Shown: in pieces, positions 1 to 58,478 of the stretch | Numbering within the stretch: position 1 is the stretch's first letter | Layout of the letters: every line of letters begins with the position of its first letter | NCBI RefSeq assembly: GCF_037042905.1 | Contig: NC_087252.1 | Coordinates: 1,986,001-2,050,000 of the forward strand | Source: Lytechinus pictus | Lineage: Eukaryota | Length of the DNA stretch: 64,000 bases | Direction of reading: 5' to 3' | Program-made: the position numbers and the translations under genes | The notes under the pieces: model-generated | Databases searched by the model: none | Told to the model about the DNA's origin: nothing | The model's input: only the letters and a program-made list of their open reading frames with translations

Positions 1-3000
1 CTTTCCACTGCGACGAATGTCACCTGAAGATGAAATATAAGACTGGATTTAAAAGAAAACATATATATTTCGAAAAATATTAGCGTTGTGCATAGTTCGG
101 GTAGGTCTTTAACCTTTCCTAATTTTTCAAATGTGGCCCATTCCAAAGATTAATATCAATAATGCAGGTGTGTTTTGGTTAAAGAATAATAACGATAATA
201 GCTTTTTTTATACAGCGCTTTCCCCATAATGGCTCAAAGCGTTTTACAGTACATTATTACCCCCTTAATTGGATTCATTTCAATCCCGCACGAAAGGGGC
301 ACAATTCCACTCCCTGGGGGAGCATTCCTTGCATTCATCAGAGTCTCATTAATGGCGCTGGCTAATTCAAACATACAATAACCTTTGTATCCTACCGGGT
401 ACCCATTTAGCACCTTGGTCGAGAGCGACAGAGTGTGGATTCACACCTTGCTAAATGACGCTAGACCGCGGTGGGATTCGAACACACGACCCTCTGTTTA
501 TTTATCTATTATTTATTTATTTCGTTTTATTTACCCAGGGTATCAGTTGACTAAGCACTGTTTTTCTTGGGGGCCCTGCATACAAGTAACAAATACAATA
601 AATACAAACAATGAGAAGTATTAAACAAGGAAGAAAATATGTTCAAAGAGACAAGCAACCTGCAGGACATACACACAGACATACTGAAATACATGTGTGT
701 ATGGAGAACAAAAGTCAACATATTGTGCATATACAAATCCATTATATTCCCTATGATCATATGTTTATTGATTACTTTTGTTTTTACTTGATTGCTCGTC
801 CCTGGAACCAGTCAGATAGGGTTAGTTATTTTTAATTAAAAGGTGAGAGTCAGAACCAATACACCACGGCTTTTCCAGAAAGGGAAATATCACCTGTAAG
901 AATGCCAAGCGCCACTTCTTTCTCTAGAACAGGATAAACCGCCTCAGCCAGGGCTTTTCTCCAATTGTATGTTGGACATTTCACTAAGGATCTCCAATAC
1001 TTCAGCATGTCCATGGTGTTTGTTACTGTGCTGATTATTCCCAAATTCTCACGAATTTTGATGCGGTTCGCCTCCTTGGACCCTTCTCCAAAGCTGACGT
1101 CATACAAATCAGCCTGGGACAATTCATATCCTATAAAGAATGAACAGAAATGACATAATTATCATACTGCCACACACATTTTATCTTCATTTAATCTGAT
1201 GAACATTCTCTGTGAACCTGGGCTCCAGAATTAACTACAGCATATACAGGAAGAGTCCACAATCATGACAATCGATCGAAAAATCAAGTTAACTTACGGC
1301 AGCTCTATGAAACGGCCCGCGATATCTATCTTCTTAATATTCATGATTCTTAAATTTTTGTTCAAAAAGAACACATTAAAAAACGATTGGTGATAAAAAA
1401 ACGTTATTTGTTACTGGCTTGATAAGAAAGGGGGAATAACACGAGTTTCAGAAAAATGGGTGAAACCCCAAACAAAACACAATACCTCCTCCTCCGAAAA
1501 AAAATCAGATATGAAAAAGTTCAAGTTCATAATATGGTTTGGACCAAAATGAAGCTGATGCTTGAGAAGATTACCCCTTTACATGAAATAGATAACGCAA
1601 TGCATATAAAACAATGAAAATAAAGAATTAGAAACAAGTAATATATAAGGGAAAACATAAACACACATTAAAAAAATCACATACGCACACGTAGAAATAT
1701 AGAAAATAGAAAATAAAAGAAAATCACAGATATCTGATCTGGGAAATGACATTTTTTGATAGTTACCTGCATTATTAATGTTTTTGTCTACCATTCTCTT
1801 GCATAAACGAATTATGGATTTTCGTGTTTTTTAGGGAGTGTGTTATGACTTAACTTTTAAACAAATGCAAAATTCAAATGAGCAAAGGACTCGAAATGAA
1901 GAAAAAAAAAAGAATTGTTTGCATCTAATTCGGAAGTTGTTAATGTATTTTTTCTCTAGAAGCATATTTAAAAAGAAGGAAATAAGTTTTTAAATGATTA
2001 TATTCAAATTATATTCAAAGGGCAAGTACAACCTCCCAAAATATTGATTTGAATCAATAGAGAGAAGTCAAACAAGCATAACACTGAAAATTTCATCGAA
2101 ATCGGAGATAAGATAAGTTATGACTTTCAAAATTTCGCTTGTTTTCTACAAAACAGTATTATGCACAACTCAGTGACAGGCAAATGAGACACTCGATGAT
2201 GCCCCTCAACCACTGTTTCTTTTGCTTTTAAATGTTTAAATAATAATAATAATAATAATAATATAGGTATATTTATCCTGGGAAGCCACTTCAGTTTCGC
2301 AAACTGTTCTACCAGCGGGCCCTGCTATTAATCCTATCTTTAATCCTATCTTAAAGGGGGAGTGAATTGTGTGCGGTCTCTCATTGATTGTGTGTTATAG
2401 ATACATAGGCCCGTATTCTGAAGTCGGGTTTAACTTAGACTCAGGTTTAAAGTTGTGGTTTAAGTATGGACAGCCAATTGTTACATAATCACTAACAGTA
2501 GATATATCATACTTTCAGCTCATTCGGCTCTCAAATCATTCATAATTGTGTAGGAAGTATAAATAGATGATTGTCTTCACCATCGATGAATCAGGAAAGA
2601 GCACAGTTAACATAAGAAACATACAACTAAATAAAAATTTTGGTACTTTTTGCTTCCCATACTTAAACCACATCTTTAAACCTGAGTCTAAGTTAAACCC
2701 GACTTCAGAATATGGGCCTTAGTCTTTAATTATACGTTTTTAGATATCTACCAATACTACAGAGAATAAATTGATCTATAATTGTGTTTGTATAGAGAAA
2801 CTAAAATGTTTTGAGAGGAAAAGTAATTGTTCCGCTACTTGGTAACATAATTATTGCGGTGTAAATATATTGAGGAGTTAATAAGCATGTCATCATTCAA
2901 GTGGATCTATATTACTAGACTACGCTAGCATTATGGTGTGAAATGGTGTGTGTGACCGGTGTGTTTGCTCAGTTGGTAGAGTGTCCGTCTCGCAACCGGG

Positions 3001-6000
3001 AGGTCGGGGTTCAAACCCCGGCCGCGTCAGACCAAAAGACGTTAAAAAGATAAGAGTTGCTGATACCCTGTTTGGCGTTCAACTATTAAAGGGATAGAGC
3101 CTCGTCGATCTGGCGCTGCACAGCGGCTGCCTAGCTCACAATCTATTGGGCAAAGCAAATTTTCGGAGCATTTCATTTTATGTTTATTTCGAACAATAAA
3201 TTATGGTGTTTTTTTTTTAACTGGCCAGGTATATGAGTAGTTGAGGACTCGAGATAGCGCTATTTGTTCTTATTTGCTTTAATTTCACATTTTACAGATT
3301 TATCACTTGGTAATGAGGAGAAAATTAGAACATTATATAAAGGTAAACGAAAGAAACAATGAGTGGATGATGCCATCAGCCCCGTCAAGTCCCTTTCGTT
3401 TGATTGAATTGAATCTGCACGGTATAAGAAAAAGAAAGGCTAAAATTGATTACCGTAATTCAGCAGAAGACTTATTTCTGGAAACCCGTGTTTGAGAATA
3501 TCACACAGTTGACGTCTCATGCTTCTGGTCGTCTCGTCGTTTCTACAAATATTTTTCATGACTCCTATTGTTCCTCTGGACATGTTAGAAGGAGTCAGAT
3601 ATAGTCTTCTGTATGATCTTAGTTTATCTTCGGATATGCCGAGGGCCATAGCTAATGGATACACGTCTGTCATCAAGAGACGAAATGCTATATCAGCCAG
3701 TTCAACGAGATATAAATCTTCCTTGTTTTCCAATGGGACTAGACCTGCAAGACATAGACAGATACAACCCCCAAACAATTCCAAAATTTTAACCTCAATT
3801 CCTTTTTTCATGATGGAACTACGGTGTACTAAAAGTATTATGAATACGTGTAATGATTTATACAGAATAAAGTGAACAATTCAAATTCATTTGTTTCACA
3901 TTAATCTAAGTTTGAGACTTTGTGGAAAGACCTTGATCGTTTTTGTCTGTTCCCAGCCAGTATGATCATGATGTTATATTCTACCCTGCCTTACCTTACC
4001 TTCCTTTCCAATGGGTTTCAACTTTGCCAAAAGTTTTTCTCGACAGTTTGCCTTTTGATCTGCCGCTTGTTCCTTCTTCATCCAAGTTTTGATTGCAGTG
4101 AAGCAGTAGTCTTCTCCTTCAAGATCACCGAATAACGTAGTTCGTTCGTCTGGTTCAAGAAACCTTGTGATACTTTGTATTTCGCCATCACTCACATTGT
4201 TCGCGGGAAAGACCTCTGTAACAATTCCAGTAATAGATCACAGAAAATATAAAGAATTAATTACTTATCCTCCAAATATATGCTTTAAAGAATATAAACA
4301 GAGGCAGAATATAAGAAATTTGACAAACTAATAAAAATTGTGAGATGATAGATTGTGCTTTCGATATAATTATTTTAATACCTCGGTCACATTTGCTCTA
4401 CGGCCATGCCTTGGAAAACAACCGTTTATTCACTTTTATTCAAACCACCTACATGTAGCTTTTACAAAAAAAAAAATGTTGAAACGGCTGTTTTTGACTC
4501 GTCGTACGGCTGCCGTAGAGCAAATGTCACTGAGGCATAATGAATGATTTTGAAATATATAACATGGATGAAAAGTGTCAAATGCTGGTGTAAGTCATCT
4601 GAATCCTTTTTTGGACAACTGAAGATAAACAAATGTATTTCGTACAATGGTATACATACCTTCAGCATGTTTAGTATTATGTGCCTGTTTAATGTCTTTC
4701 TCGCGTTCCAGTATTAAATAACTGCTATATCCGACCAAATAACCTACAGAATAAAGAAGTACAAAATCAGTACATTATTGTATAAGTACATTTGTTATTT
4801 ACTGTTTTTGATACAATTTAAGTAGTATGAGTGTAGCTGATCGGCTGACTCGTATCAAATATCAAACCAAGTACTTGAAAACCTGAATCTTCAATGTAAC
4901 ATACCTTTTAGATCAGAGCGTCCGATACTAATTGCTGCGTGATCTACTTCATATCTCCTGCTAATAGCATGGCTAATTTCCAGACTACGCTTTTCTTCGG
5001 TTATATCTTCTTCACTCCTCTCTTGCTCATTTTCCTCATGGCTAAGCCAATCGCCGATCATCGACTGAGTTTGAAATACGTGTTCATTGTTTTCATCGCT
5101 GATGGTGGCGATCTTCCCAGTGGTCAGTTCAAGGGCACTTGCCAAAATGTGACAATGCCTACCAGTCAGCTTCGAGGTGAAGTATTGTAACTCCTGATTT
5201 GATATGGGTTGATCAGGTACTAGAGATACAAATAAATGCGATTAAAATACAAATTAAAAGCCCGATCTGTTTAATTCCAGAATTAACGGTGTCGACATAT
5301 AGTCAGAACATAAATAAACATGAAGGATCAGGAACTGTCGTCCATCTTACATCGCCCTATCAAGGCCGCCGTCCATCTTACATCGCCCTATCAAGGGGGG
5401 GGGGGGGGCCTCAACGAATAGCGCATTATTTTCGCCGCACAATGTTCTTTGACCGCGCCGCTCGCTGCCTTTTTAGTTTTAGGTCTTGCGCATCTTTTCA
5501 AACGATAAAAAAACGACGCCCAGGTACGCGGCTCCGTAATTATGCAAATTTTTTGTAAGTGCATGTTAGGCCAAAAATAGACAGGAATAACCGTCGTTTC
5601 TGGGGATTTATTCAACAATTTCTGACATTTTACTGTAATCCCCATTTACCGACGGTAGGGTGTACTTGTGGGCTCGCATGTGTTCTCATTCCCTCCCTTT
5701 TGTCAATTCACAGTCCAAAGTTTGATGTAATTTTACACATCGAATTTACAATCTAAGGATGTATAAACAACAAACTTTTAAAACTTCATGTTTTAACATT
5801 TAAATACTTTAAACGATATAGATGAAAAAGGCATGAAAAATATACTTTACCGATGTTTAATTGGGTTGAACACGATAAAAATGGTCAAAATGGCAGCCAA
5901 ACTATAAAATATTTACAAACGAACGTCAACAATCACGAATGTGATATCGATATTGCTTTCGATATTATACGATCTGCTCCATATGCGAACGAAACCGAAG

Positions 6001-9000
6001 ATAAACGATACTAGTTATACTAGTACTAGTACTAGTTATAATCGCGATATATCGATTCGAGACATTACGTTAATACGATAATGACGTCATTCAAGATGGC
6101 AACTTGCAAGAAAAACCGTCAGGTCAGGTGAAAATGTCTTAGATGACAGATTTCTCAATCATCCAGAGGATTTTTTTCAATAACTCCGGCCCAAGGTATG
6201 CAATTACTTAAGTTATTTATACTTACCTGATAATGGAAACCATGAAACTTTCAATTTTGCTTAAAAAACAGTTTTAAATCGCGTTCTATAAAACGCTAGT
6301 TCACTATACGTTGGCTGTAGGTACGGGGCCCCATCCCCTTCAGTCTATGTATGGTGAGTGGAGCCAACGTAGTTCAGCGGAACAACCAAAATACAGAGAC
6401 TGAAGCTTTTGGTCTAGGCCAAAAACTGCTAAAAATGTGATTTCGTGTACAGAGTCAAAGCAAATTGAGTTTTCAGCTAGAAATCATAAAGTATGACTAT
6501 AATTAGTTTTGCTGGTCTAAATGGATTTATTTATGCTGTTTATGATCTCAAATTAGTACTCAACAAAGTTCATTGAAAAAAGGAAAAGAAAATTGTAAAA
6601 AACAAAGAAAGAAATTACAAAGTGCAAACAAACCCATATAATACATACGAAATTGATCTACATCGCATTTTTTTCCAAATGAATTCGCTAAGAACGACAC
6701 AGAGTTTTTATACCAACAGTTAAATATTTGGAGCTTTATTTACAGCGGAAAATGTATGACTTTGCATACTAATTTTGCATAAATTAGCATAATCACTAAT
6801 AGCAATGAAATAGATTACTATTTATTTTGTGTACATTATGTCACAGACAACCTGCGTGCCAATTTTCGGCGTGATCGCGCGATCCGGGCCATATGATCTC
6901 CTAATATACCCCGGCCTAGATCATGTAGATATGGTTAAGGAAGATCAATTTCCAGGGAAAAGGTCAAACTCACCACAAAAGAAAGTTCTGTCGACTGGCG
7001 TGCATTCTGCTTTTTCGAGAGCTAAACTCAGCAATGAAACTGGGTTTTCATCAAAACGTGTACTGGCCCACTTCTTCAATTCTTCCAATTTTTTCGGTAT
7101 CAGCTCCGATATCCTTTCAGTGTCCTCAGTGTCCGTTGGATGGCGATAATGTGTGATCTCCGAGAGAAAGGTATTGATTTTCACTTGTTCGCCAATGTGC
7201 CACAAAATGTGCTCGAGCATTCTTTCGGAAACCATGACCGTCGACTTTGTCCGTACATCTAGAAAAGGCAAAAACTCTATATCAGAAAAAGGTAGGTAGA
7301 TGCTAAAAACATATACTTCTACGTAAAGACCGACCTACAAATTCCCCGGAACGTCGCAGTTTCTCTCCTGTTCCTGCTCTGTAACTCCACTCGCCGTCTC
7401 AAGCTAACCCAGTCAGTCCGCAAGCCCTTAAAAAGTAGCTTCTTTTATCCAAGTGATATTAATGACAAGAGGGTTTTTGCATAGTTAATGAGCTTGGTGC
7501 GAACCAAAACACCTCTTTTTATTCGGCCATTGCTGCTCTAAATATTGACCAAATTTCATGTTTTTGGTATGTTTGTAAAGAAGAAGAATCATTCTTTTAG
7601 GTCATGTGTTTGGATTTTTAAAAGAATGTTGTAATATAGGAAAAACTTTTGATCTAAAATATGAAAGAAATTTTTTTTTTATGCAACAAAAGTTGTTGTT
7701 TTCACACTTAATTTCTGTTTGGGCACAAATGATTTTTAATCATGATAAAGCTGAAGATCTAAGCTTTAATATGATATAATTTTTATAAGAAGATGTATTT
7801 TAGATGGGTCAGCAGCCAGCTTTTCATAGGCCAAGTACATTTTGCAGCTCAAAAACAAGAATACTGCGCTCTGATTGGTCATACAGACCACACACCCACG
7901 CAAATTCCAATGTTCCCCACACTGGGCCTCTGCAAGGTCACTCACCATGTGGTAATCTCTTCAAATTACCCGCGCCTGTTTGTTTTGAAAACAGTATTCA
8001 GCCAATCAGAACTCTGGAATTGATGTTACTCAGAAATTTCAGAAATCTCGTCTTGCATCTTGATGGAAATAACTGGCTGCTGACCCATCTAAAAGATGCC
8101 ACATATCAAGATTGACATTGTAAGAAAGTATAGAGTTTGAGCTTTCTGATGATATAAATAATGTTGGTGCCTAAAACACAAAATGTTGCACAATTTGCAT
8201 GTGAAAACAGAGGAAGAAAATTCTGTTTGATGCATCTTTTCAGGTAAAAAATTCACTTATTTATCAAAATATTTCATTCAAAAGAAATGACCAATATAAA
8301 AGGGTAACATTTACTCTTGCCCATGGTACAAAAATAATCAATATTACTAAAGGTGAAAGTGGTTCAATTCTTTGAGAAAGAAAGTCTCACAATTCACGAG
8401 ATTTTGCAGGGACGAGCCACGAGAGGACTTGGATAAATCTTGCTCATTTGCTCATTAACACAGGGGCTTGCGGACTAACTGAACCCCTCAAACTACTGAA
8501 GTCTCTTAACCTTTCTGGTTTACAGTCCTGTTAATTACTACTCTAAATTTTTGTAAAGGATGCTCTACTTTTTCCACTTTTTCATCTCTCCATTTCTCTT
8601 CTACCTCTATCCACTTTTGAAGTCCTTGTACACGATGTACCGTCAACCCCTCCCGCAATCCTCCATACTTTATTATTATTATTACTTATTATTTGTACTG
8701 CGCTGTACTTATTGCTGTACTGCGCTGTACTGTACATATTATTTGTACCATACAACTATGCAAACCTTGAAACATCAACCAAATCGATTTTTTTTTTTTG
8801 GGGGGGGGGTTATTACTTCATAATGCAGTACCTACCATAAATTTCTTTCCACGCGTCAGGGTATTTAGCTTTTTCTAAAGCTGTTCTCAATTCCTGCGCT
8901 AGGTCGTATTCATCGTCGTGTGCCTTGCCCGCTTTCCACTGACACAAATGTTTGTAAGCATGCGGGAGTGTGAACCCATGTATCAGTTTCCCGATACCTA

Positions 9001-12000
9001 GCTGTTCAAAGGTATCATTCAATTTCCCCATATCAGACATGGTTACTTTAGACACCATCATCCAGAGCTCGTAAAAAGACAGTTTTCCTAAAATAATGAA
9101 TGTGGGAATAAATGAAAAAAAAGTTTTTGGCAAGTCTGTAACTTAGACAAAAAAAAAACCCATGCAATTCTATAATAATCATGATCAATTCCATTATTTG
9201 TAGATGCTGTTACCAGGACTAGTCACCTAACTGGTTAATGAATACAATTGAAGAAATGAGGCCAAGTTCTCGAAGTGATCCTTTCGCTTCTTTCATCTCT
9301 TCATTAAATTAATTTTGACAACTATTAAAACACTTCATCAGTAAATTTTTCCACATTTATATCCTTGTTTTGTAATCATAGGTTCATATGCATTATATAT
9401 ATTATATACATGATTAAGCTAGTTCTAGTTAATAACTCTGATGTTAGAATGTGTAAAATGTGTTTGACCTTTAATTTTCTTTTTTATCGTATACTCTTAA
9501 ATTATTGTTTTTTAAGGAAAGACTTGTAAAAAGGGAGTCAATATAATGCCACCATTTCAATAGGGCTATTGAGTTTGTCGATTAATCGATTTTAATCGAT
9601 TAAAAGATCACTCAAGGTTTACATCAAATATACCGAGGAAAATGCAAAACTTACAACCATTAAAAAATGTGGTTGGTCCCATTTCTTAATAGCAAAGAAT
9701 GCACTTATCAAAAGGGTAAGGGACGTGTGTAGTCATCCCCTTAAATCCTTAGACTTGACTGTGATAATACCTTTAATTTCCTTAGTTTCCATAAGAGGGT
9801 AACCTTCCTCTATGTCATCGTTACCAGACCCTGTTACGGGGAAGATACAGAGACATTTGAAATAAAATATAAATGTTAATACATGTATCAAATGCAGTTC
9901 TAAATTACAGTAAATCATTGTTTTATTCCGATAATGCCAATTTCCCGAAAGCATATAAGCCATGTACCTAGCACCTTCCGAAACGGCACACAAGGAAAAG
10001 ATTTTATAAGTACACGTTTGTACCTTCCACTATTCCAGATGGATGGTCACAGAATTACATCTACAACATGACAACAGACGTGCAAGAGCGACAAGGTGCA
10101 TATAAAGGTGCTTGCAGTATTGGTAGCAACGTTTGAAAATGCAAAACATATTTTTTCTAACGTTTTGTAGAGCCTGCATCCATTCTGTTCATTCTTGAAT
10201 CTTGAATAAATAATCCCTTCTGCAGCTCATACTGGAAGCTAAACTGGGTGGGTGCATGTGCAGTCAATGGCCGACAGTGACGTTGGAGGTTATTTACTAT
10301 AAAAAGTGGAGGTGTGTGCAAGTAAAAACATGACCATTCAGTTCACAATAACCGGAGTCCAGCAGGTGGCTGCACTGTTAGAAAATAATGAAAGAAGTTC
10401 ATGCAGCAGAGTCTCGAGAACACCTGTTATCTTACCAGATCATGTACAATTACAGGAAATTGGTATTTGGTGTATGGAACCTTACAAATTTCCTTTAATA
10501 AAACGCCCTTTTCCCCTTTTCAAACAGACCTGGTCTGTTAGATTGCAGAAAAAATTCATTTTTTAATGAATTTACAGAATAATTATGTTATTGCTTTCTG
10601 CAACATCTTTTTTTCCCTATAAGATCAGTTTTTTTTATACTTCTGATAACTGGGAAGGCAGCCGCCTGGAAGATATAGTGAGGGAATGTGTGTTGATAGC
10701 TACACTTCTCCGGTAATAATTTTATTAGAAATATTCTAATCATGTGTATTTAGGTGAAAATCACACACACACACAATCTATTCAAAATGTTATATATGCA
10801 AGATTTATTTACACCACCACACCTTCCTTTTATTGATTTCTGAGTTACTTACCTTTACTAACTTTTCTACGATGCCTTCGTAACCAGATCATGAATATGG
10901 AGGCACCAATTACTGTCACGACTCCTAAACTCGCTAAAGGTATTACTGTTAGAGGAATAAGATATTTAGATATTAACATCACATTCTTCATTCAGTCACA
11001 AAATGACAGTAATTTGAATAGAATAAATCGATAGTATTACATTCTTGTGAAATGTAATCAGGGGTTCTTAATTTTATTCAGTGTATATTCACATCGATCA
11101 TAGACACAAGTGCATATAGGACTATATTTCATAAAGGGAAAGAGCAATCGACGTCGGAATAGGCGGATGATAAATGTTACGCGTAACAACACAATTCCAA
11201 GCTCAAAGTTTGCATCAACCATTATAACAATACATCATGTTTTAGTCTGATAAAAACGGCAAATTAGCGATATAATGGTTTCTGTTAACTGATTATCGAT
11301 TCCACAATCACACGGAAATACAAAGCTTTATCTATTGAAAACATATAAAAAAATAATTGTCATCTTGTTCATAGGTTATACAATTGCAGATGAAACTAAA
11401 AGGAAAATTCTCGATATCTCTGTGTCCATTATTTTGTTGCAGAAGAAACAAATGACGGTGAGAACAAACATAATAATTATGATGATTTTAATGATATCAT
11501 GCTGATAACCATCATCATCTTTACCAATAACCATGAGGAGGTTTGTTCCCTTTGGTGGCATTGTTGTCATGGTTGTTGATTCTTCGGGAGCCGAAGTTTG
11601 TTCTTCCGGAAGCCGAACAAATGCTGTCACCGCACGTTCCTTGTGTTGTCCAGGTATGTCTGATGCGACACACACGTATGGCATTTTACTTGGAACTGCA
11701 CTTATGGAAACTGACTTGCTTCTGGTTTCATCGTCATTGATCCATTCTTTCGTCTCGGATGAAGCAATTTTCTCAGTCCCGTGCAAAAAGAACAGGCTCA
11801 GTTTGGGGTAAAAACCAGAAGCATAGCAGTTGAGGTTTACACGGGGGTTTACATTGGTAAGTGTGGTAATGGAACAACCGAAGTCTTGAACAATCGAAGA
11901 CGAGTCATTGCACTCCTTAATGGCCGGGTAAGGTTCTGTAGGTGGCTCTGTGAAAAAGAATTGACCAATCACATGACCATTATAACGCATGATGTACTAT

Positions 12001-13855
12001 CATTGCAGGTATAACCCCTACCCGAAAGAAAAATCCCCGATTATTTGTTTTCTTTATATTTTGTCCGTTCAGAACGGTTACCTAAGGACAGATTACGTTT
12101 ACTAATATGAGAAACAGGTACCATTACAAGACCAAAGTCAACATACTTATGATAAATAGACGGGGAATTGCTTATGCCCCAACAAAATAAAAACATCACT
12201 CAACTTTGTGAGATAAAGTATCAATTTCTATCTTACCTACTACACTCAAGTCAGTAAAATTGTGGATAAGAATCCCGCGGTAGTTTGAAACTCGACATAT
12301 GTAGCGACCCTCATCTTTTATCTGGGCTTCTTTGATGATCAGGGAATAGTTATTCGCTATCTCACATGAATTATCATCAGCACAAAGACCCGGCCATATC
12401 TTATCGTCCATCCATGTGACCAGTGATGTTGCTTGCTCTGGGTCGTGTCCTTTCTTCCAGTAAACTGCTAAAGGTGCTCTGTAGAACCTACAGTCCAAGA
12501 CGGCAGTGCTTCCTCTTGGTACGGTTTTGAGGAGATCTGTGTAGACGACACCATCCTTGATATCTCCCATGATACCTACAAACACCGCAAACAAACAAGG
12601 TACAATTTCAAGAAGTAATTTTTATGTGATTTTTACTTGCAAAAATTTGATCAAGGCAAACCAGATATTAAGGTTTTAGCAGTTTTAATTTACAAAATTT
12701 CCATGAAAATATTCAAAAAGATGTACTGGTACTACCAGGCATTCTACTATGAAATAATTGAATCTGAAATATGTCAACCTTGCAACTTCTATTTCCCTTG
12801 CTAAATGTTTACCCTGGAAAATGTTTCTTTTGAAATGATGATACACTGCTTCAATTTTGGTTTTACAATAACTGCGATAACTGGTGATGCACCAGTTTAA
12901 TAACGTAAAATGGTGTTTCAAAAAGCTCCTTGTTAGTATATAAATTTCACACACACACACCCTCACCCATACACACACCATGCACGCACCCTTTCCGTCC
13001 AACACACGCAAGCGCGTGCACACACACACACACCCACATATACCAGTTTGTTTTACTTTTTTTTATTCCCGTAAAAAAAACATGGTTGCCCGCAAATCAG
13101 CGTTTAGCTGTTTTTCAGCGAGGCCGTATTAAAGAAGAACAGTACAATAATACAAAAAGTGATGAAAAACTAAAAAAAATATTGAAATTTAACCAAACAA
13201 ATATATCATGACAAAACATATACGACTTTAAAACATAAACATATATAAGTTAAAAATAGAAGCATTAGCAAACATAAGTAACAAATACAATATAAGTTGC
13301 AGTTCCAAAAGTGTTTGAAACTTGGACAGAGCAGGACATATGAATAAATAATTATAATAAGTAGAAACTTGCTGTGAAAAAAATGTAAATCAAGCAGGCG
13401 TCACATTACATGCTTATGGATGACATCGCATTGTGGTAAACAGTTTGTAAGAATAAACCAATTATCTTTGACAGAGTTAGCCTTTAAACGTCGGTTACCT
13501 CTTTTGAGAACACGTAGATGAATCATACTGACATAATCTTTTTTTTTCTAAATTAAAAAAGGGGGTAAAAAAAAACTTTCACAAACATGGCTGTTTGCAC
13601 TACCAGAAAGACGAAGTTATCGTTACTGTAATCACATCGTATCATGCATATAAAATGGGACCCATTCTTTTGTAGCCAGACTCTATTCTACCAACCCCCG
13701 ATCTCCCAAACATTCACCCAGAACTAGAAGAGAAAGGCCATTGATATTCTACTTTCAATTAATAGTTTGGGAAATCGTGATTAACTCTTACCATGAATGC
13801 AGCATAGTATCATAATGATTGCCATACGAGGCCAAACAAGTAGTCGACCCTCCAT
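1..13855 (-). CDS. Gene A: Ig(V)-Ig(C1-like)-TM receptor with >=6 tandem death-fold-like domains; 3' end beyond window
   Basis: Exons 13855-13792, 12575-12237, 11947-11525, 10945-10853, 9830-9771, 9087-8836, 7258-6974, 5219-4905, 4743-4660, 4215-4000, 3744-3454, 1130-894, 23-<1. All AG/GT bounded, all introns phase 1, open frame of 894 codons to the window edge; exon-by-exon homology to gene B. Confidence 0.85.
190..872 (-). mobile_element. tRNA-derived SINE with LINE-like 3' tail, interrupted by an insertion at ~497-838
   Basis: Minus strand: A-box-like TGGTGTATTGG near 860, B-box GTTCGAATCC near 478, tail AAACGCTTTGAG...AAAGCGCTGTATAAAA. Confidence 0.7.
894..1130 (-). CDS. Gene A death-like unit, type f
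   Basis: GYELSQAD...WRSLVKCPTYNWRKALAEAVYPV...ILTG; homologous to B 29007-28774 and C 58478-58245. Confidence 0.8.
2408..2718. mobile_element. MITE with ~60 bp TIRs, GGCCC ends (Harbinger-like)
   Basis: ggcccgtattctgaagtcgggtttaacttagactcaggtttaaag ... ctttaaacctgagtctaagttaaacccgacttcagaatatgggcc; TSD unclear. Confidence 0.8.
2955..3205 (+). mobile_element. tRNA-derived SINE
   Basis: TGCTCAGTTGG A-box and GGTTCAAACCC B-box head continuing into a non-tRNA body and AT-rich tail. Confidence 0.75.
3454..3744 (-). CDS. Gene A death domain, type e
   Basis: ELADIAFRLLMTDVYPLAMALGISEDKL; B counterpart reads ELLDIAFRLLLEDVYPLAKALDISDETL. Confidence 0.82.
4000..4215 (-). CDS. Gene A short death-like unit, type d
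   Basis: VSDGEIQSITRFL...AIKTWMKK...REKLLAKLKPIG; homologous to B exon 30715-30473. Confidence 0.75.
4378..4537. mobile_element. Small hairpin MITE
   Basis: cctcggtcacatttgctctacggc ... gccgtagagcaaatgtcactgagg. Confidence 0.7.
4660..4743 (-). CDS. Gene A linker exon
   Basis: GYLVGYSSYLILEREKDIKQAHNTKHAEG; tgtag/GTATGT; 84 nt; positional counterpart in B is 31920-31834. Confidence 0.7.
4905..5219 (-). CDS. Gene A death domain, type c (most canonical)
   Basis: ISNQELQYFTSKLTGRHCHILASALELTTGKIATISDENNEHVFQTQSMIGDW...SIGRSDL fits the death-domain helix pattern; 315 nt. Confidence 0.82.
6974..7258 (-). CDS. Gene A death-like unit, type b
   Basis: EHILW...KKW...DENPVSLLSLALEKAEC; homologous to B exons 35832-35554 and 34412-34131; GTGAGT donor. 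Confidence 0.8.
7410..8481. mobile_element. Non-autonomous DNA transposon with 4-bp TSD
   Basis: TIR cagtcagtccgcaagccc / gggcttgcggactaactg; aacc at 7406-7409 and 8482-8485. Confidence 0.75.
8836..9087 (-). CDS. Gene A death-like unit, type a (SFYELW)
   Basis: KLSFYELW...LCQWK...LRTALEKAKY; homologous to B exons 37282-37040 and 35354-35118. Confidence 0.8.
9771..9830 (-). CDS. Gene A juxtamembrane exon
   Basis: GSGNDDIEEGYPLMETKEIKG, 60 nt, phase 1-1; similar to B exon 37994-37929. Confidence 0.7.
10374..10660 (+). mobile_element. Interspersed repeat with CACTGT end; inverted copy at ~44870-45163
   Basis: Shared gcagcagagtctcgagaacacctgt...ggaaattggtatttggtgtat sequence. Confidence 0.7.
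10853..10945 (-). CDS. Gene A transmembrane exon
   Basis: VIPLASLGVVTVIGASIFMIWL followed by basic RRHRRK; aacag/GTAAGT; 93 nt; not in the ORF track. Confidence 0.85.
11525..11947 (-). CDS. Gene A Ig C1-like domain plus Ser/Thr stalk exon
   Basis: LNCYASGFYP...NDDET...YVCVAS then EESTTMTTMPP; cacag/GTAAAG; 423 nt. Confidence 0.88.
12237..12575 (-). CDS. Gene A Ig V-type domain exon
   Basis: VLDC...VYWKKG...YSLIIKEAQIKDEGRYICRV (C, W, DxGxYxC); tgtag acceptor, GTAAGA donor; 339 nt. Confidence 0.92.
13792..13855 (-). CDS. Gene A exon 1, signal peptide
   Basis: gcaacATG; MEGRLLVWPRMAIIMILCCIH-G then GTAAGA donor; phase 1 fits the next exon. Confidence 0.75.
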
Positions 13856-14360: not shown

Positions 14361-14490
14361 CGGGCCCGTAACACAAAGCTTAGCAATGATCGTAGAATAT
14401 CTTTACGATTGATTGCATTGACTACAATGTACAATCAATCTTGAAAATCAATCGTACGATCAATCGCTAACCTTTGTGTTACGGGGCCCC
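14361..14490. mobile_element. GGGCCC-ended MITE containing the duplication boundary
   Basis: gggcccgtaacacaaagcttagc ... gctaacctttgtgttacggggccc; only its right half is present at 50806. Confidence 0.7.
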
Positions 14491-19344: not shown

Positions 19345-19632
19345 GGGGGACCACTTCCATTGACGAGTGGATACCAGGCGCGACCATGGGATTTCGAAAA
19401 GCACCATAAACAGGGAAGCAAGTCTTTTCCAGATTATGAAAATGCATCTCTTAACAAGTATTTGGCTTGTGAAACCCTACAAGTATTATATCCCCTTTTC
19501 AGTATTTTAAACATCGTTTTGACACCCTTATAACGTTACATATAGGCCTATACGTAGGTACCTGCCCACTCTTTCCCTTTTTTACGCGTGGTCGCGGCTG
19601 ATATCAACTCGTCAGTGGAAGTTGCCCCCCGG
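19345..19632. mobile_element. MITE, same family as 43030-44140
   Basis: TIR ccacttccattgacgagtggatacc...gcgcgacc at both loci. Confidence 0.65.
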
Positions 19633-20030
19633 GCGGCCTCTTGAGCTCTGGGAGGTACCAAATTTGGCTCTGGAAAGTCGTCCTAAATCGGATTTATCGC
19701 TGTTACCATAGTAGCAACCATAATTTTGCACACGAAACGCAGATTGAATGTTTTCCGTTGCAGATGCGGAACGAAAAAAATTATCATGTCACACAACTTA
19801 CATTGCAGAACAGTGTTTTACGACCATGACGACGGGCCCAAAAGTCCCTTCCAAAATCAATATACCGTCGTAAAGTCCATCTGCGTTGCAACAGCGAAAA
19901 ATGGGGAATAATACCATGGCGCAGTAGTCAATGAATGCATTTTCTTACTAAACAGAATTTCAATTTGGCATTTTCCGGCCGTTAGGATTTGAATTTAAGT
20001 CTAGCACCCTCTATAGGCTATGATTTGATT

Positions 20031-20036
20031 TTTATT
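20031..20036 (-). promoter_or_regulatory. Candidate polyadenylation signal of gene B
   Basis: AATAAA ~340 nt after the stop, retained in C near 54150; common by chance in AT-rich DNA. Confidence 0.3.
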
Positions 20037-20370: not shown

Positions 20371-20594
20371 TTAATTTTTTCCGTCGTGATCTGCATGGTC
20401 TTCCTGGTGTGATTTTGACATAACACCTGCTGATGTGTCTTGATCGCTGTTATTGCGTCCGATGTCTTTATGGTCCTCATCGACCTTTAGCTTGGATGTG
20501 TTTTGATGGTCGCGATGTAAGCTTTGACCATGCGGTCCATTAAGGGAGTTTGCTTTGTCTTTCTCTCTTTGCTTCTTGGACCTCGGTGTGAAAC
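20371..20594 (-). CDS. Gene B terminal exon, hydrophilic tail
   Basis: ataag acceptor; GFTPRSKKQREKDK...DHDGKN*; open in the phase-1 frame in both B and C. Confidence 0.72.
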
Positions 20595-41300: not shown

Positions 41301-41749
41301 ACACGCACACACACAGTCCAGACCCACACCACCCCGAAAACAGAGACCAACACAAAAATGTGCATATACCTACATACACACCCATCGAACCACAGACACG
41401 CCCGCCCACCCCACCCAATACACATGAATATAAATGCTCCACCACATGATAATTATGTATGACCTCCTTGGACGACAATTCCCTATACTTTCCAAAGAAT
41501 ACGTTAAAATGTCCCAGCTTATAGAACATGGGGGGAAGAAACACACAATGCTCAGGGTTAACTGCTTCATTCATGGTCTCCGATGAAGATTACTCTCAAA
41601 ACATTCCTACTGAACAGAGGAATATGCTTACTGTTAAAAACAATAAGAATGTTAATCTACATAAATTATAAATACTTACACCATATAGAGCATGAGAATA
41701 GGAGACACCCCACGCCTAAAGAGAGTAATGATTTCCGTTTATCGTCCAT
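20371..41749 (-). CDS. Gene B: complete Ig(V)-Ig(C1-like)-TM receptor with ~9 tandem death-fold-like domains, ~1302 aa (1315 with two optional micro-exons)
   Basis: Exons 41749-41680, 41054-40707, 40097-39669, 38653-38546, [38340-38323], [38186-38166], 37994-37929, 37282-37040, 35832-35554, 35354-35118, 34412-34131, 33816-33553, 31920-31834, 30715-30473, 29759-29481, 29007-28774, 28385-28122, 23737-23486, 20594-20371(TAA). All AG/GT, all phase 1, every internal exon a multiple of 3. Confidence 0.85.
20704..22089. mobile_element. Non-autonomous hAT-like element rich in gcgcgaagcgcg
   Basis: TIR ..cgcgtagccag / ctggctacgcgcctg; 8-bp TSD ttttctta (20696-20703, 22090-22097); empty site near 54813. 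Confidence 0.85.
22298..23093. mobile_element. Kolobok-like non-autonomous element
   Basis: TTAA|aggaatgctccaggctga ... tcagcccggagcatccct|TTAA; counterpart at ~55370-55970 with a partial tandem duplicate from ~54987. Confidence 0.78.
23486..23737 (-). CDS. Gene B last death-like unit (type g)
   Basis: MKLAQILDIP...VLETW...LSNRLLKAGFKELA; 252 nt; intact copy in C. Confidence 0.78.
23925..27252. mobile_element. Foldback-type element, 3328 bp, ~1 kb inverted arms, 8-bp TSD
   Basis: ggcttattataatcactcggg ... cccgagtgattataataagcc; arms ~23925-24936 and ~26318-27252; ggtcaggt at 23917-23924 and 27253-27260; single ggtcaggt at the empty site near 56783. Confidence 0.92.
27253..27916. mobile_element. 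MITE whose end was the foldback target; copy at ~56781-57393
   Basis: gtcaggtgcataaaaaagtagcaa ... ttgccatttttttatgcatctgac. Confidence 0.7.
28122..28385 (-). CDS. Gene B helix plus acidic linker exon
   Basis: GTYLGDCSKNAAVFQELINNI...EHIKLNSG|GTAGGA; 264 nt, same length in C; unspliced frame runs on to TAA at 28075. Confidence 0.68.
28774..29007 (-). CDS. Gene B death-like unit, type f
   Basis: GHETSLAD...RDWKF...LADAIYPV...ILFG|GTAAGT; 234 nt. Confidence 0.8.
29297..29333. repeat. (GA)n microsatellite
   Basis: Direct reading. Confidence 0.9.
29481..29759 (-). CDS. Gene B death domain, type e
   Basis: ELLDIAFRLLLEDVYPLAKALDIS...LREVLSKIGYKDIA; 279 nt. Confidence 0.82.
30473..30715 (-). 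CDS. Gene B death-like unit, type d
   Basis: INDEVLRIAACL...GWMTK...KLREKLKSAK; 243 nt. Confidence 0.75.
31834..31920 (-). CDS. Gene B linker exon
   Basis: DELWKDLNPGRDLGIQHGRRSSGHLKHVKG; 87 nt, phase 1-1; ends KHVKG vs KHAEG in A. Confidence 0.65.
32060..33240. mobile_element. Decayed DNA element with ~300 bp imperfect inverted repeats
   Basis: atctgactgcaggaa...caaactccatagcagtg mirrored by cactgctatggagtttt...ttcctgcagtcagat. Confidence 0.65.
33553..33816 (-). CDS. Gene B death domain, type c
   Basis: FTDRLTSRH...AMVNDW...LREALDSIGRQDI; 264 nt; splice sites weaker (caag acceptor, GTCATA donor). Confidence 0.75.
34131..34412 (-). CDS. Gene B death-like unit b2
   Basis: EHILW...VEW...DENPIILLSHALEKTEC; 282 nt. 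Confidence 0.8.
35118..35354 (-). CDS. Gene B death-like unit a2
   Basis: MISFPELW...LCDWK...LLDALTKANF; 237 nt. Confidence 0.8.
35554..35832 (-). CDS. Gene B death-like unit b1
   Basis: EQII...MEW...ENPNAVLSLALAKSGC; 279 nt. Confidence 0.8.
36167..36920. mobile_element. TTAA-flanked (Kolobok-like) element with internal inverted arrays of ~50-55 bp repeats
   Basis: TTAA|aagtgccacc ... ggtggcactt|TTAA; unit gatgtagacatgacgagatccaagatcttgtcatctgatcat. Confidence 0.8.
37040..37282 (-). CDS. Gene B death-like unit a1
   Basis: EISFYELW...LCKWK...LQSALQNANF; 243 nt. Confidence 0.8.
37929..37994 (-). CDS. Gene B juxtamembrane exon
   Basis: DRTIARNDGQESIPMIEQAHIDG; tttag/GTAAGA; 66 nt. Confidence 0.72.
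38546..38653 (-). CDS. Gene B transmembrane exon
   Basis: VVPLFVLILLGAIAVFL then RLKR; tgcag/GTATGA; 108 nt. Confidence 0.85.
39669..40097 (-). CDS. Gene B Ig C1-like domain plus stalk exon
   Basis: LTCSVTNYYP...NDDGT...YICVAS; 429 nt. Confidence 0.88.
40707..41054 (-). CDS. Gene B Ig V-type domain exon
   Basis: VLKC...VYWKKG...YSLTIRDARIEDEGRYICRV; 348 nt. Confidence 0.92.
41680..41749 (-). CDS. Gene B exon 1, signal peptide
   Basis: caaaATG; MDDKRKSLLSLGVGCLLFSCSIW then T|GTAAGT, phase 1. Confidence 0.75.
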
Positions 41750-54482: not shown

Positions 54483-57400
54483 TTAATTATCTCCGACTTG
54501 ATCTGCTTGGTCTTCCTGGTTTGGTTTTGACAATGACACACTTGCGGTTGTGTCTTTATCGCTGTTATTGCCTCCGATGTCTGTATGGTCCTCATCGGTT
54601 GCTTCATCGACATTTGGCTTGGATGTGTTCTGATGGTCGCGATGTAAGCTTTGGCCATGCTGTCCTTTAGGCGACTTTGCCGTTTCTTGATCTCTTTGCG
54701 CCTTTGACCTCGGTTTGAATCCTTACGAGGAAAGACATAGAAATACATTACGAACGTCGAATTATATTATGTTACTGTATTACAAATTTGAACAACATTA
54801 TTGTAGTCATATTTTTTCTTATAGTAAAGTCAGTCAGCGGTTTGTCGTTTTTCTTGCAAAACATACCTTATGCTACTGGTCACAATTTACCTAGATCTTG
54901 TTACGTATGAAGTGACGCGTGAGAGAACTATTGAGTGACAAAACAAAATTGGATTAGACGAACCTAGGGCACTCGTAAAAACCATGAGGGATGCTCCAGG
55001 CTGAAAATATTTATATTGTAATAAGTAGAGTAAAATTCGCATAGGAATGCTGAAAATTTGATGAAAATCGGATAACAAATAACAAAGTTATTGCATATTA
55101 AAGATTTGCATTATTTCGGTGAAACAATTTTAGGCATGTCTTCATGAATATTCATTAGGTGGGCTGATAATTTCATATCCCCACTTGTTCTTTAGTATTT
55201 CATTATATGAAATTAGGTTTATTATGCTACTGGTCACAATCTACCTAGATCTTGTTACGTATGGTCTGAGAACACACGTTAAGTGACGCGTGAGATAACT
55301 TTTGAGTGACAAAACAAATCGGTTTTCTAGATTAAACAAACCTTGGGCATTCGTGTAATGCGTAGACTGAAAGGGATGCTCTAGGCTGAGGATATTCATA
55401 TTTCAATAAATAGAGTTTTATTCACAAAATAAAATGCAAAAAATTTAGATCGAATCGGATAACAAATAACAAAGTTATCGAATTGTAAAAATTTGCATTA
55501 ATTCGGTGAAACAGTTCTAGGCATATCTTCAGGAATACTCATTAGGTTGGCTGATCCTACTTGTTCTTTTGTAATTCATTATATGAAATTAGGTTTATTT
55601 AAACATTTTCTCCCAAGAATTAAAACAATTGGATTGACAGCTGATTAAGTGCATTAGTTATTTATTACTGTAACTTATTTCATCATAATGTAGACACACC
55701 AATTACAAATGTATGAAAAAAACAAGTATGACTTCATGCAATATAATCATGTAACATAAGAAAAAAGATGTGGGGATGTGACATCATCAGCCCACTTAAT
55801 GAATATTATTGATGACGTGCAGATAACCGTTTTCACAAAATATTGCTCAACTAAAAAAACGATATCTTTGTGATTTGCTATCTGATTTTGATGAAATTTT
55901 CAACATTTTGCTCTGTGAATTTTACTTTATTTATGTAGATGCAATTATTCTCTGCCCGGAGCATCCCTTTAACGGCCAATGTAAAACCGACATGTACTTT
56001 ATTTTTACGGTGAACATTCGAACTCAGCATGAAAGTCCCAATGGACATTTTACTTCTGAAAGAAGCTTTAAAATTTTTGAACTTGGTATTAAATACACGT
56101 ACAAAGATTAGTCATCGTAAGATAAATGTTAATAATAAAGACAAAAACCTTGAACAAATTTATTATTATTTTTTTTTATATTGTCCTATCTAATTATCGA
56201 TAAGCGTAAATTTTTTTAATTTCCTTTTCAGTTTAGATTTTATACTCCACAATAGTTGCCGTTTCTAACTGAGGTCTAAAGAAGGTAAATCTCGTGGCAC
56301 AGAAGTGACAAGAATACGTTTTAACATGTTCCGTACCGATCATTATTTCCAATGCTAGTTCCTTGAACCCAGCCTTTAGGAGTCTGTTACTCAGCTCTAT
56401 CTCTTCATCCCTTGCCATAGGATTTTTAAAGATCATTCCTTCCCATGTCTCGAGGACATGCATAAGAGAGTTTTCTTGAGTTTTCCATATCTTTGTCGTC
56501 GTTATATCAAGAATCTGAGCTAATTTCATCGTGACCGCTAATTTGTACTTGGCGACATCATCTGCATGATCCGATTCTATCTCTTTGCCTATGTTAAGAA
56601 TACATAAAAAGTAGAAATTTACATTAATATATATCATAAAACATAATCATTGCACTTAATGAAACTCTAGTAAAAAAAAACCCCGAATCCCCGGCAATTT
56701 TTAAAGTACGTGAGTATTTGTCATTCAGAGTTGTAAGAAGCCATATTAAGAAATGCTTGAACATGGAATCGGCAAGACGCGGGGTCAGGTACATAAAAAG
56801 TAGCAATGGCTTTTACTTGATTCCGTATGCATAAAACTGAGCGAGAAAATGCTTTTGATAGTAAGTTCAAGCAATCGCTTACTGACTGCTAGTATTTCCT
56901 TGAGAATTAAGCTATTGCTAAAAAGCGTATGCGTAAAGCGAGCATTTTGCTTGTGCGTTCTAGCAGTTGCTTGGTTTTTTCCAAGCTCCGTCAGAGCATC
57001 GTAAGCGTTTGCTTGACCAGGGCGTTCGAGTTTTTTAATCATATTTATGCAACTGAGAGAGAACCCCAAGGTGTAAAGTACAAAGCAAATGCCAAATATG
57101 AAAAAAAAAAAAAACGTATTTTGACACCAAGTCTTAGGAAAAGTTGTTATAAGAAGAAGTGCTAATTTGCACTGCCACATCTTTGCGCTCGTAGTCCTGC
57201 CTTTTCTGCGAGTCGCGTGACGTCGCTTTTGTTTAAACCGCTAGCAATTGCTTTCTGAAGGAAAAAGGTTCAAGCACGGTTATGCATAGGCAAATAAAGC
57301 AATTGATGAGGCATGATCTTTTGCTTGGCCAGCTGTTGCTTTTGTTTAAATCAACTTCTTGCCACCGATTGTTACTTTTTTAGGCACCTGACTCAATCAT

Positions 57401-58478
57401 GAAAATGAACGTCTTGCCAAAAATTAAAATGTGAAAACATTTTGCTCCAACGTAAGATTGGTAGGGGGGGGGTTGTGGGTCGAGATAAATCTTTAACCCA
57501 GATCATTATCATTACGAAGGTGAAAGTAAAACGCAATGTGTTCATTAGATTACATTATCTGGAAAAAGAACGATGACCATATTTTTATCATTCCTACCAC
57601 TATGAAGCTTAATACGTTCTGATGTAGGATCTGTTGAAGAATCAATGGATATCTTTTTAGCCCTGTCTGTATCAACTGTTCGCTGGATGTCATCTTCAGG
57701 AATTGCCACTTCATTATGGGTTTGGAGCGCTTGATCAGGTAACTTATTTCGCTCTCTAACTTCGAGGATCTTCCTGACCAATGATGGCTCGAAAGACTCT
57801 ATATTATTGATTAACTCCTGAAAGATAGCTGCATTCTTACTGCAATCTCCAAGGTAAGTCCCTGCAAGAAATGAATTGACATGGTAGCTATCTGTTTGAT
57901 ATTGCTATGAATCACACTAATTCTCCAACATAAAAACAAACAAACCCTGATAACATTCGTACTAATGCCAAATAATTCTTTTTCATGAGGACGCATGAGA
58001 GATTATGCTCTATGTTGACTGCAAGTTCAAATTATGATACAACTCTTGAACTTCAAAATGCTCAGCTATAATGGAACGTGGAATCTGAATCAGAATGTGG
58101 GTTCTTTAGAAGTTCCGTTGGAATTCGTTTTATTGTCTCGTCCTAGTATGAACTTCATATGAAGCTGCCAGGTGTGCTCATCATTGACCGAGATCGAGGA
58201 AAGAGGAGAGTGTACATAAGTTATTTACCTAGGATCAAACTTACCGAAGAGGATTCCATCAGCTATGTCTTTACCTTGGACGGGATAGATGGCATCAGCA
58301 AGAGACGTTCTTGAATTGAAAGATGGTGGATGGACCATGAACTTCCAATCTCTTATCATGGTAATCACACTGCTCCTTTGGCCCATTCCTAAGTTCTTAG
58401 AAATTATATTTAGAGCTTCTTGATTACCCTTTGATTTCTCAACTAGTGCAAATGCATCAGCTAGGGATGTTTCATGGC
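54483..58478 (-). CDS. Gene C: last four exons of a close paralogue of gene B; upstream exons not in window
   Basis: Exons 58478-58245, 57861-57598, 56588-56337, 54721-54483(TAA); same splice sites as B, no stops or frameshifts. Could be the 3' end of a full gene or a partial duplicate. Confidence 0.75.

Follow-up and report, generated by a model that had tools for sequence, protein, structure and literature searches.

The window analysed here, a stretch of 64,000 nucleotides from the laboratory sea urchin Lytechinus pictus, contains three paralogous genes (A, B and C), all on the minus strand, in which a signal peptide, an IgV domain, an IgC domain and a transmembrane (TM) segment are followed by an array of helical units, each encoded by one exon (Table 1). 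Gene B (41749-20371) consists of 17 exons with GT-AG at every junction; all internal exons are phase 1-1 with lengths divisible by 3 nt, and its 1302 codons hold no internal stop and are identical to the RefSeq protein P0005/XP_063959096 (1302 aa, Lytechinus pictus, uncharacterized). Gene A shows 11 whole exons (13855-894) and 23 nt of a 12th in the window and continues past its left end; 13 exons join by GT-AG without stops to 1037 aa, the tail exon lying beyond the window. Gene C is represented by its last four exons only (f, g, h and tail, 58478-54483), the remaining 13 being located at window +66.9k to +100.3k, and the 17 exons join by GT-AG to 1306 aa with no stop. The preliminary description of three same-strand Ig-Ig-TM paralogues with a cytoplasmic array is confirmed by these in-frame chains and by the RefSeq match of gene B. 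Its count of 6-9 units holds inside the window (6 complete in A, 9 in B); the full counts are 8 in A and 9 each in B and C with a degenerate g exon in addition, while a neighbouring gene on the plus strand (+109k to +152k) has 12.

Table 1. Exons of genes A, B and C in the window (DD, death domain; percentages against DD or unit e are hhalign values)
Feature	Position	Strand	Evidence
A exon 1, ATG + signal peptide	13792..13855	-	hydrophobic, phase-1; matching exon in downstream paralogue
A IgV	12237..12575	-	Pfam V-set 30.6 bits, I-set 30.5
A IgC-like + Thr/Pro-rich stalk	11525..11947	-	weak Pfam ig; ~40% identity to gene B IgC
A TM, basic stop-transfer	10853..10945	-	sequence read; GT-AG, in frame
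A juxtamembrane mini-exon	9771..9830	-	acidic dileucine-like motif, tabulated in relatives; GT-AG
A unit a, predicted five-helix death fold	8836..9087	-	type-a profile; type a vs canonical DD 91.7%
A unit b, predicted five-helix death fold	6974..7258	-	type-b profile; type-b fold
A unit c, six-helix DD-like	4905..5219	-	Pfam Death E=0.0058 (below cut-off); type c vs DD 97.6%
A unit d, reduced DD-like	4000..4215	-	93.6% only with 8 positional relatives; 3.5% alone
A unit e, six-helix DD-like	3454..3744	-	type e vs DD 95.6%
A unit f	894..1130	-	type f vs DD 96.2%
A h-type exon, start	1..23	-	second h exon + tail left of window
B exon 1, ATG + signal peptide	41680..41749	-	P0005 residues 1-24
B IgV	40707..41054	-	Pfam V-set 29.7 bits; V-C splice joint
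B IgC (C1-like) + stalk	39669..40097	-	Pfam C1-set E=0.0015, below cut-off
B TM	38546..38653	-	P0005 residues 283-318; joint 38546/37994
B juxtamembrane mini-exon	37929..37994	-	splice joint from TM exon; P0005 mapping
B unit a	37040..37282	-	type-a profile; profile vs DD
B unit b	35554..35832	-	type-b profile; joint to a2 (short side 161 nt, 0 mismatches)
B unit a2	35118..35354	-	AF2 pLDDT ~90; Z 9.1 to 2of5_A, Z 9.2 to RIPK1 DD
B unit b2	34131..34412	-	AF2 alone pLDDT 76; vFLIP Z 8.9, rmsd 1.7; 2of5_H Z 8.6
B unit c	33553..33816	-	pLDDT ~88; 97.6% vs DD; THOC1 DD E=0.23; joint from b2
B linker, 29 codons	31834..31920	-	P0005 residues 776-804; joint to d
B unit d, low-confidence model	30473..30715	-	pLDDT 40-58; profile with positional relatives
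B unit e	29481..29759	-	pLDDT ~90; 95.6% vs DD
B unit f	28774..29007	-	POP1 pyrin domain Z 6.6, NLRP7 PYD Z 5.8; 96.2% vs DD
B exon g, two helices then disordered linker	28122..28385	-	pLDDT <50 over residues 656-730; 0.3% vs DD
B unit h, probable death fold	23486..23737	-	pLDDT ~78; 41% vs DD, 92% vs unit e
B last exon, disordered tail + stop	20371..20594	-	model disorder; RefSeq match
C unit f	58245..58478	-	90% identity to B f
C exon g	57598..57861	-	91% identity to B g
C unit h	56337..56588	-	84% identity to B h
C last exon, tail + stop	54483..54721	-	closes 17-exon open frame

It could be argued that the joined genes are an artefact, the Ig-TM and death-domain exons belonging to separate transcripts or the copies being in decay, as gene C is divided between two RefSeq models (P0001 and P0164) and the splice joints come from one sequencing run of unrecorded kind in a single study, no RNA data set being listed among the runs that carry the sequence. 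However, at least six canonical joints were found among those listed, including V-C, TM-mini-exon, b-a2, b2-c and linker-d, and a d-e joint bears the letters of gene C. The expected transcript linkage of the exons was thus seen at several junctions, but none of the contigs listed for that run spans the junction between the juxtamembrane exon and unit a, which does not imply absence for unlisted joints. Additionally, the unbroken phase-1 GT-AG chains without stops in three genes, the joined Ig-array models present in S. purpuratus and Diadema, and dN/dS values below 1 make an artefact highly improbable.

The IgV domains of genes A and B exceed the Pfam V-set cut-off of 26 bits, and the second Ig domain is only C1-like (C1-set 19.2 bits for the gene B exon against a cut-off of 21, and 24.1 in P0001). 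Pfam matches in the ectodomain are to Ig families only. For IgV, comparison of two pairs of paralogues by whole-exon NG86 gave dN/dS of 0.38 and 0.34, with no sign of positive selection, which counts against the immune or allorecognition role suggested in the preliminary description. The cytoplasmic parts gave 0.44 and 0.40; the genes are under purifying selection, with dN/dS of about 0.4. An IgV followed by a C1-like Ig, a stalk and a TM segment, in tandem clusters, resembles the arrangement of B7/butyrophilin-type V-C ectodomains. A tandemly clustered set of V-C1-TM genes in sea urchin was reportedly recorded by Hibino et al. in 2006, and the ectodomain family of genes A-C may already have been counted there, but we know of no death-fold array described for either B7/butyrophilin or sea-urchin V-C1-TM sets. 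Other gene models place the same ectodomain ahead of a different module, NACHT in P0018 and GTPase domains in P0041 and P0138.

No unit of the three genes reaches the Pfam Death (PF00531) cut-off of 22.6 bits, the best scores being 18.3 (P0004), 17.2 (unit c of gene A) and 16.4 (P0005), and standard annotation therefore misses this family; unit c of the relative P0012 does pass, with a Pfam Death score of 26.7 bits on the full-length protein. The units were judged by two other kinds of evidence, profiles and predicted structures. In the profile test, units were aligned by hhalign with 20 Pfam-positive DDs from the same genome; types a, c, e and f gave the high values listed in Table 1, and the profile scores exceeded the best of 20 block shuffles for a (35.2 against 24.0), b (29.7 against 18.5), c (61.5 against 30.3), e (45.9 against 20.2) and f (48.3 against 20.9). 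Because the iterated f profile had drifted into c units, it was re-run on 17 of its 31 rows with the c units excluded. Unit d gave 3.5% against DDs with near copies only and 93.6% with eight positional relatives of our own choosing. Unit h, with 32-41% against DDs and 92% against unit e, is a weaker case and a putative death fold. Exon g of B and C (two sequences) showed no death fold, with 0.3% against DDs and pLDDT mostly below 50.

Death folds were matched by AlphaFold models of three unit types, with Z of 9.1 for a, 8.9 for b and 6.6 for f. The predicted model of a2 aligns with death folds at rmsd 2.4-2.8 over 81-86 residues (Z 9.1-9.2), and that of b2 superposes on vFLIP over 73 residues. 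By title, death-fold proteins make up 44 of the 50 listed rows for the model running from b to the tail and 46 of 50 for unit b alone. Top Z values of 6.6-9.2 can be reached by helical bundles by chance; therefore, the support lies in the uniformity of the match list. Units c, d, e and h entered these searches only as parts of the model running from b to the tail. The proposed check by AlphaFold and Foldseek succeeded in part, as the models match death folds by Z but Foldseek returned no match at E<=0.001 for either model. PDB sequence-profile searches with a, b and e retrieved no death domain, only designed repeats or unrelated proteins, and the best of unit c was the THOC1 DD (Table 1). ESM Atlas features reached Death clusters at 0.83-0.87, below the bar of 0.9, and serve as a lead only. 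Low pLDDT over d, g and h is explained by poor rows there in the folding alignment, in which the first b unit was also contaminated by Ig sequence.

In the predicted models a2 and b2 are five-helix units with a loop in place of helix 3; helix 3 is absent in a, b and f and reduced in d and h, and c and e are six-helix units. Units a, b, c, e and f are thus predicted death folds, as profiles indicate for all five and fold matches for a, b and f. The death fold foreseen for most units was recovered, but its six-helix form was not, being restricted to c and e; these two had been described as matching the death-domain pattern well, and they are indeed the most canonical units, with profile values of 96-98%.

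The unit order (ab)n-c-d-e-f-h is conserved, with the a-b pair repeated one to three times; the order a-b-c-d-e-f-h is kept, barring a few fused or mis-typed models, in the 46 of 167 proteins carrying a unit, 14 of which combine Ig, TM and unit. The tail model (880 residues, pTM 0.52, 260 residues with pLDDT below 50) is all-helical, with no beta strands of three or more residues, and each unit passes into the next through a fused helix or a bridge of 1-2 residues (H164-175, H548-571). The pTM hints at a rigid multi-unit body in this model. A complex prediction of a2-b2-c with e-f-g-h of the gene B tail, made with no alignment, scored 0.04 and counts neither way. The preliminary description had proposed that the array could pre-nucleate a Myddosome/PIDDosome-like helical assembly; in such a model the array would fold back into a preformed turn of a DD helix, and a single receptor chain or a small number of them would start the polymer. 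The fixed unit order across species is in line with this, and by rough arithmetic on the 880-residue model the pTM would correspond to 4-5 units fixed mutually; however, the pTM argument is indirect, being made without a PAE map or coordinates. Helix 3 takes part in death-domain interfaces of types I and III. Its absence from a, b and f, its reduction in d and h and the near lack of linkers weaken the proposal, and we consider such pre-nucleation distinctly unlikely.

UNC5 and p75NTR combine a TM segment with a DD, and, to our knowledge, known membrane receptors carry one death domain each and must oligomerise to form a signalling assembly. Death folds in tandem occur in the cytosol, usually two to a protein. 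The TNFR superfamily (Fas, TNFR1, DR3-5, p75NTR) shares with genes A-C a single membrane pass, no enzyme and a cytoplasmic death fold, and the DDs of Fas and TNFR1 are among the structural matches; it differs in its cysteine-rich ectodomain, of which Pfam found no repeats in ours, and in having one fold in contrast to 8-12 divergent ones, most without helix 3. UNC5 likewise pairs two Ig domains outside the membrane with a DD inside it (UNC5H2 DD, Z 6.7), but has neither many folds nor a large tandem family; TSP1, ZU5 and UPA gave no Pfam match in P0005 at E<=0.05. The TIR domain, a trait of IL-1R/TIGIRR, had no Pfam match in P0005. We rejected the possibility that the genes represent only the N-terminal half of an NLR, as P0005 holds no NACHT and its frame ends in a stop, and none of at least 73 NACHT matches in the genome lies nearby (C8, 1.9-2.35 Mb). 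By Pfam content the genes therefore match none of UNC5, TNFR, IL-1R or NLR.

Holothurian Ig-TM-NACHT receptors (PMC8699970, PMC13673367) are comparable as echinoderm Ig membrane receptors with an intracellular innate-immune module; one of them, AjNLRC4 of sea cucumber, binds microbes (PMC8699970). The relative P0018 joins an ectodomain of the genes A-C type to NACHT, a likeness of domain layout, whereas genes A-C themselves have no NACHT. The array resembles tandem death folds (vFLIP/cFLIP/caspase-8 tandem DED, RIG-I tandem CARD) in having consecutive folds with nearly no linker (PMC11874512, PMC2615266). Those modules are cytosolic pairs, in contrast to up to 12 folds of seven types in a membrane receptor. 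The helix-3-less vFLIP is the best match of unit b, and helix 3 is also missing from MC159 DED1 (PMC2615266). This raises the idea of an inhibitory or decoy receptor, whose helix-3-less units would, like the tandem DED of FLIP, cap or sequester DD adaptors at the membrane and damp death or NF-kB signalling; the loss of both usual DD tryptophans from unit e in the alignment points the same way. However, the top Z of unit b is tied with ordinary DDs, the other partners of the ectodomain (NACHT, GTPase) resemble effector modules, and tandem folds are found in activators as well, RIG-I tandem CARD being an example (PMC11874512). Thus an inhibitory role is unlikely. The literature searched, with most subscription papers outside the search, gave no description of an Ig-Ig-TM-death-fold-array family.

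Unit-c matches number 19 among 24 candidates, one being a duplicate contig, and strong IgV matches 33 among 66, which by sequence comparison places the family at 18 or more loci in Lytechinus pictus. Relatives occur in three other urchins, and a protein of Lytechinus variegatus shares 84% identity with the cytoplasmic part of gene A across 613 aa. Word-based searches beyond echinoids gave urchin names only, with 10 of the 150 listed representative matches named. The suggested lineage expansion is supported by these locus counts and relatives. A non-immune adhesion, guidance or dependence-type receptor acting in developmental cell survival, by the logic of UNC5 or p75NTR, would fit the purifying selection on IgV and the presence of UNC5 and p75NTR, themselves TM receptors with DDs, among the structural matches. 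Yet dozens of divergent tandem copies with variable unit number, and an ectodomain common to NACHT and GTPase models, fit immune families better, and we regard this role as quite improbable.

Ig receptors with an array of 8-12 folds probably feed cell-death or immune signalling, and the reading that genes A-C are innate receptors scaffolding death-domain adaptors has, in our opinion, somewhat better than an even chance. They would be functional type I receptors at the cell surface, from a family expanded in echinoids and serving innate immunity or cell death, whose IgV-IgC ectodomain may bind a putative microbial or cell-surface ligand and then cluster. Since the array on the cytoplasmic side includes neither an enzyme nor a NACHT or TIR domain, it would signal only as a scaffold. 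Its surfaces may recruit adaptors or effectors of the FADD, MyD88/Pelle, DD-caspase or DD-NLR type, with the six-helix units c and e as likely docking sites and the helix-3-less units as putative rigid tandem modules that would space or orient these sites or add avidity. At least 75 Pfam Death matches exist in the genome, and their proteins are possible candidate partners.

A bolder view, which we hold as doubtful, is that the genes represent a receptor class of a new kind, in which urchins would couple an interchangeable Ig-TM sensor module to one of several outputs: NACHT, a very large GTPase or the death-fold array. In the last of these, 8-12 folds in fixed order would form a rigid single-chain supramodule replacing the multi-protein Myddosome/DISC nucleation. 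If this were true, one receptor or a small cluster would template adaptor assembly directly. The 8-12 ordered folds would offer a natural test of how fold number, order and helix-3 loss relate to signalling thresholds, and a large family of Ig receptors would be added to the immune repertoire of the sea urchin.

The three paralogues in the window all lie on the minus strand, as six-frame reading and self-comparison confirm for the claim in the preliminary description. Gene B consists of 17 exons. Those for the signal peptide, IgV, stalk-bearing IgC, TM segment and a juxtamembrane mini-exon are followed by units a-b-a2-b2-c, then by a linker exon, then by d-e-f-g-h and finally by the tail; junctions are GT-AG in phase 1-1 throughout, and the spliced product equals the RefSeq model P0005 (XP_063959096, 1302 aa) exactly. 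Gene A repeats this ectodomain layout, followed by a-b-c-d-e-f-h-h, the final two h units lying mostly left of the window; its 13 joined exons encode 1037 aa with no stops. Within the window gene C is represented by f, g, h and its tail, and 13 further exons extend up to +100 kb; the joined exons give 1306 aa, again with no stops, and RefSeq divides them between two models, P0001 and P0164. At the level of gene models the proposed joining of exons into a signal peptide-Ig-Ig-TM-array protein holds. The 264 kb examined in this 812-Mb genome contain a fourth minus-strand copy and two on the plus strand, one of these bearing a 12-unit array (a b a b a b c d d e f h). RefSeq labels the proteins at the locus "uncharacterized".

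Splicing was followed in contigs of one public sequencing run (one study, kind unrecorded) aligned to gene B. CT..AC ends fall exactly at predicted exon borders in 6 of the 15 joints listed (V-C, TM-mini-exon, b-a2, b2-c, linker-d, f-g), and a joint skipping d, from the linker exon to e, is also listed. A d-e joint of this run bears the first five letters of the gene C e exon and therefore spans the 7-kb intron of gene C. Of the expected transcripts tying Ig/TM exons to the array, pieces on either side are seen: V-C, TM-mini-exon and unit-unit joints are present, but the joint from mini-exon to unit a is absent among the contigs listed for gene B in this run, a listing that covers 15 joints and stops short of 33 more. 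Coming from contigs of one study with some intronic cover, the data show spliced molecules, neither level nor tissue. That the architecture is an annotation artefact is exceedingly improbable. A relative has two RefSeq isoforms, P0156 and P0019, of which one contains the mini-exon and the other lacks it, and thus this exon may be alternatively spliced. In 6 of 14 tabulated proteins and in gene A it encodes a brief acidic stretch whose last two residues are hydrophobic; this motif resembles a dileucine sorting signal, but its register is not strictly kept.

The notion that the units are death folds is supported by prediction for a, b, c, e and f, leaves d and h as candidates, and fails for exon g. 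All Pfam Death matches in genes A, B and C were below cut-off. When unit profiles were compared with 20 of the at least 75 Pfam-positive DD exons of the genome, the scores were 97.6% for c, 96.2% for f, 95.6% for e, 91.7% for a and 77.1% for b; these five each beat 20 block shuffles, and a, b, c and e also the reversed alignment. Unit d reached 3.5% alone and 93.6% after adding 8 positional relatives, h 32-41% (92% against e) and g 0.3%. AlphaFold modelling of the gene B tail (P0004, 61-row alignment) gave confidences of about 88-92 for a2, b2, c and e and 76-78 for f and h; the first b and d were poor, and g and the tail disordered. In a structural search against 48,161 chains, a2 matched death domains (2of5_A, Z 9.1; FADD DD, 8.6) and f pyrin domains (Z 6.6); by title, death-fold proteins make up 44 of the 50 rows listed. 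Against the RIPK1 DD, a2 reached Z 9.2. Foldseek E-values for both models, tail and unit b, were not significant. Helical bundles often give Z values in this range, and it is the uniformity of the match lists that carries the weight.

The earlier impression that c and e fit the death-domain pattern well agrees with their retained helix-3 region, which is replaced by a loop in a, b and f and appears reduced in d and h. A low-complexity repeat of ~240 residues inserted at this position in the plus-strand neighbour P0003 is consistent with a free loop there. Unit b modelled alone matched vFLIP (Z 8.9, rmsd 1.7), 2of5_H and FADD DD, with death folds in 46 of the 50 rows listed, and helix 3 is likewise described as lost in MC159 DED1 in the part consulted of PMC2615266. 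A FLIP-like decoy is nevertheless unlikely.

Death folds bind death folds. The tails of the gene products have no catalytic, NACHT or TIR domain and so would act only via protein contacts, which together favours a clustered scaffold receptor. We lean somewhat towards a receptor clustered by an extracellular ligand, whose tail would recruit DD adaptors through c and e, the helix-3-less units serving as rigid spacers. The pTM of the tail model (0.52) gives only a hint that several units may pack rigidly; a self-assembled nucleating turn formed by the array is quite unlikely, and a developmental receptor very unlikely. The clustered receptor would resemble death receptors in mode of action, whereas by their defining tests the array receptors fall outside TNFR death receptors, UNC5, IL-1R and Ig-NACHT NLRs. 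In keeping with the view that no described family fits, no Ig-TM-multi-DD receptor was found in the literature searched, including the portions consulted of PMC8699970, PMC8195603, PMC2575513, PMC13673367, PMC11874512 and PMC2615266; ectodomains may be listed in the 2006 urchin immune-genome papers (Hibino 2006, supplements). The 2025 death-fold atlas (PMC11874512) contains neither "urchin" nor "echinoderm".

Lineage expansion, as suggested, is evident from the genome search: at least 66 matches for IgV (33 at E<=2e-25), 36 for IgC, 25 for unit a, 19 for c and 16 for e, the last two each including one on a duplicate contig, with clusters on contigs C8, C10 and C11. The 21.9-kb C325, a 100% identical copy of the gene B cytoplasmic exons annotated separately as partial gene P0004, is probably a redundant assembly contig. 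Among 1.84 billion representative sequences 321 matched at E<=0.001; the named sources of the 10 looked up were L. pictus, L. variegatus, S. purpuratus and Diadema antillarum. The order (ab)n-c-d-e-f-h holds in nearly all 46 unit-bearing proteins of 167 examined. In two paralogue pairs dN/dS was below 1 over the cytoplasmic exons (0.44, 0.40), in IgV (0.38, 0.34) and in IgC (0.13, 0.41), individual exons reaching 0.78-0.89 on few changes. Synonymous divergence between genes B and C varies by exon (0.06-0.39), which suggests mosaic gene conversion. A segmental duplication takes in the 3' end of each of these two genes together with its downstream flank.

Coordinates of features at the locus and elsewhere on contig C8
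Feature	Position	Strand	Context
Mini-exon	window 37929-37994	minus	gene B
Mini-exon	window 9771-9830	minus	gene A
Segmental duplication, 78-89% identity	window 14425-29144 vs 50806-58616		genes B, C
LINE-like retroelement, reverse transcriptase in one frame and zf-RVT in another	window 46668-48821	minus	between genes B and C
53-bp tandem array inside inverted-repeat element	window 36154-36933		a-b intron of gene B
Additional inverted-repeat elements	window 25803-26328 and 43404-44006
Low-complexity insertion	P0003 residues about 470-710, window +122.5k to +123.7k	plus	first b unit
Array-family IgV/IgC exon pairs interleaved with 5 huge URGCP/very-large-GTPase exons	G000:C8:23.59-26.08 Mb	minus

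The same ectodomain is joined to other domains in predicted gene models, namely NACHT (P0018) or GTPases (P0041, P0138, P0147). In the distant C8 cluster the IgC exons are 55-62% identical to that of gene B, closer than most DD-array paralogues, and in four cases GTPase exons lie 15-100 kb downstream of the pairs on the same strand; P0138 joins an IgV start of this type to a URGCP-type GTPase. Judged from sequence, these sets may encode Ig-TM-GTPase receptors or consist of paired genes. None of the 73 NACHT matches listed for the genome lies near the array-receptor locus. P0018 is a predicted Ig-Ig-TM-NACHT protein, its ectodomain at 44% to P0001. Ig+TM NLRs are termed apparently holothuroid-specific in the consulted part of a review (PMC13673367); if P0018 is from an urchin, this holothuroid-only range would not hold.
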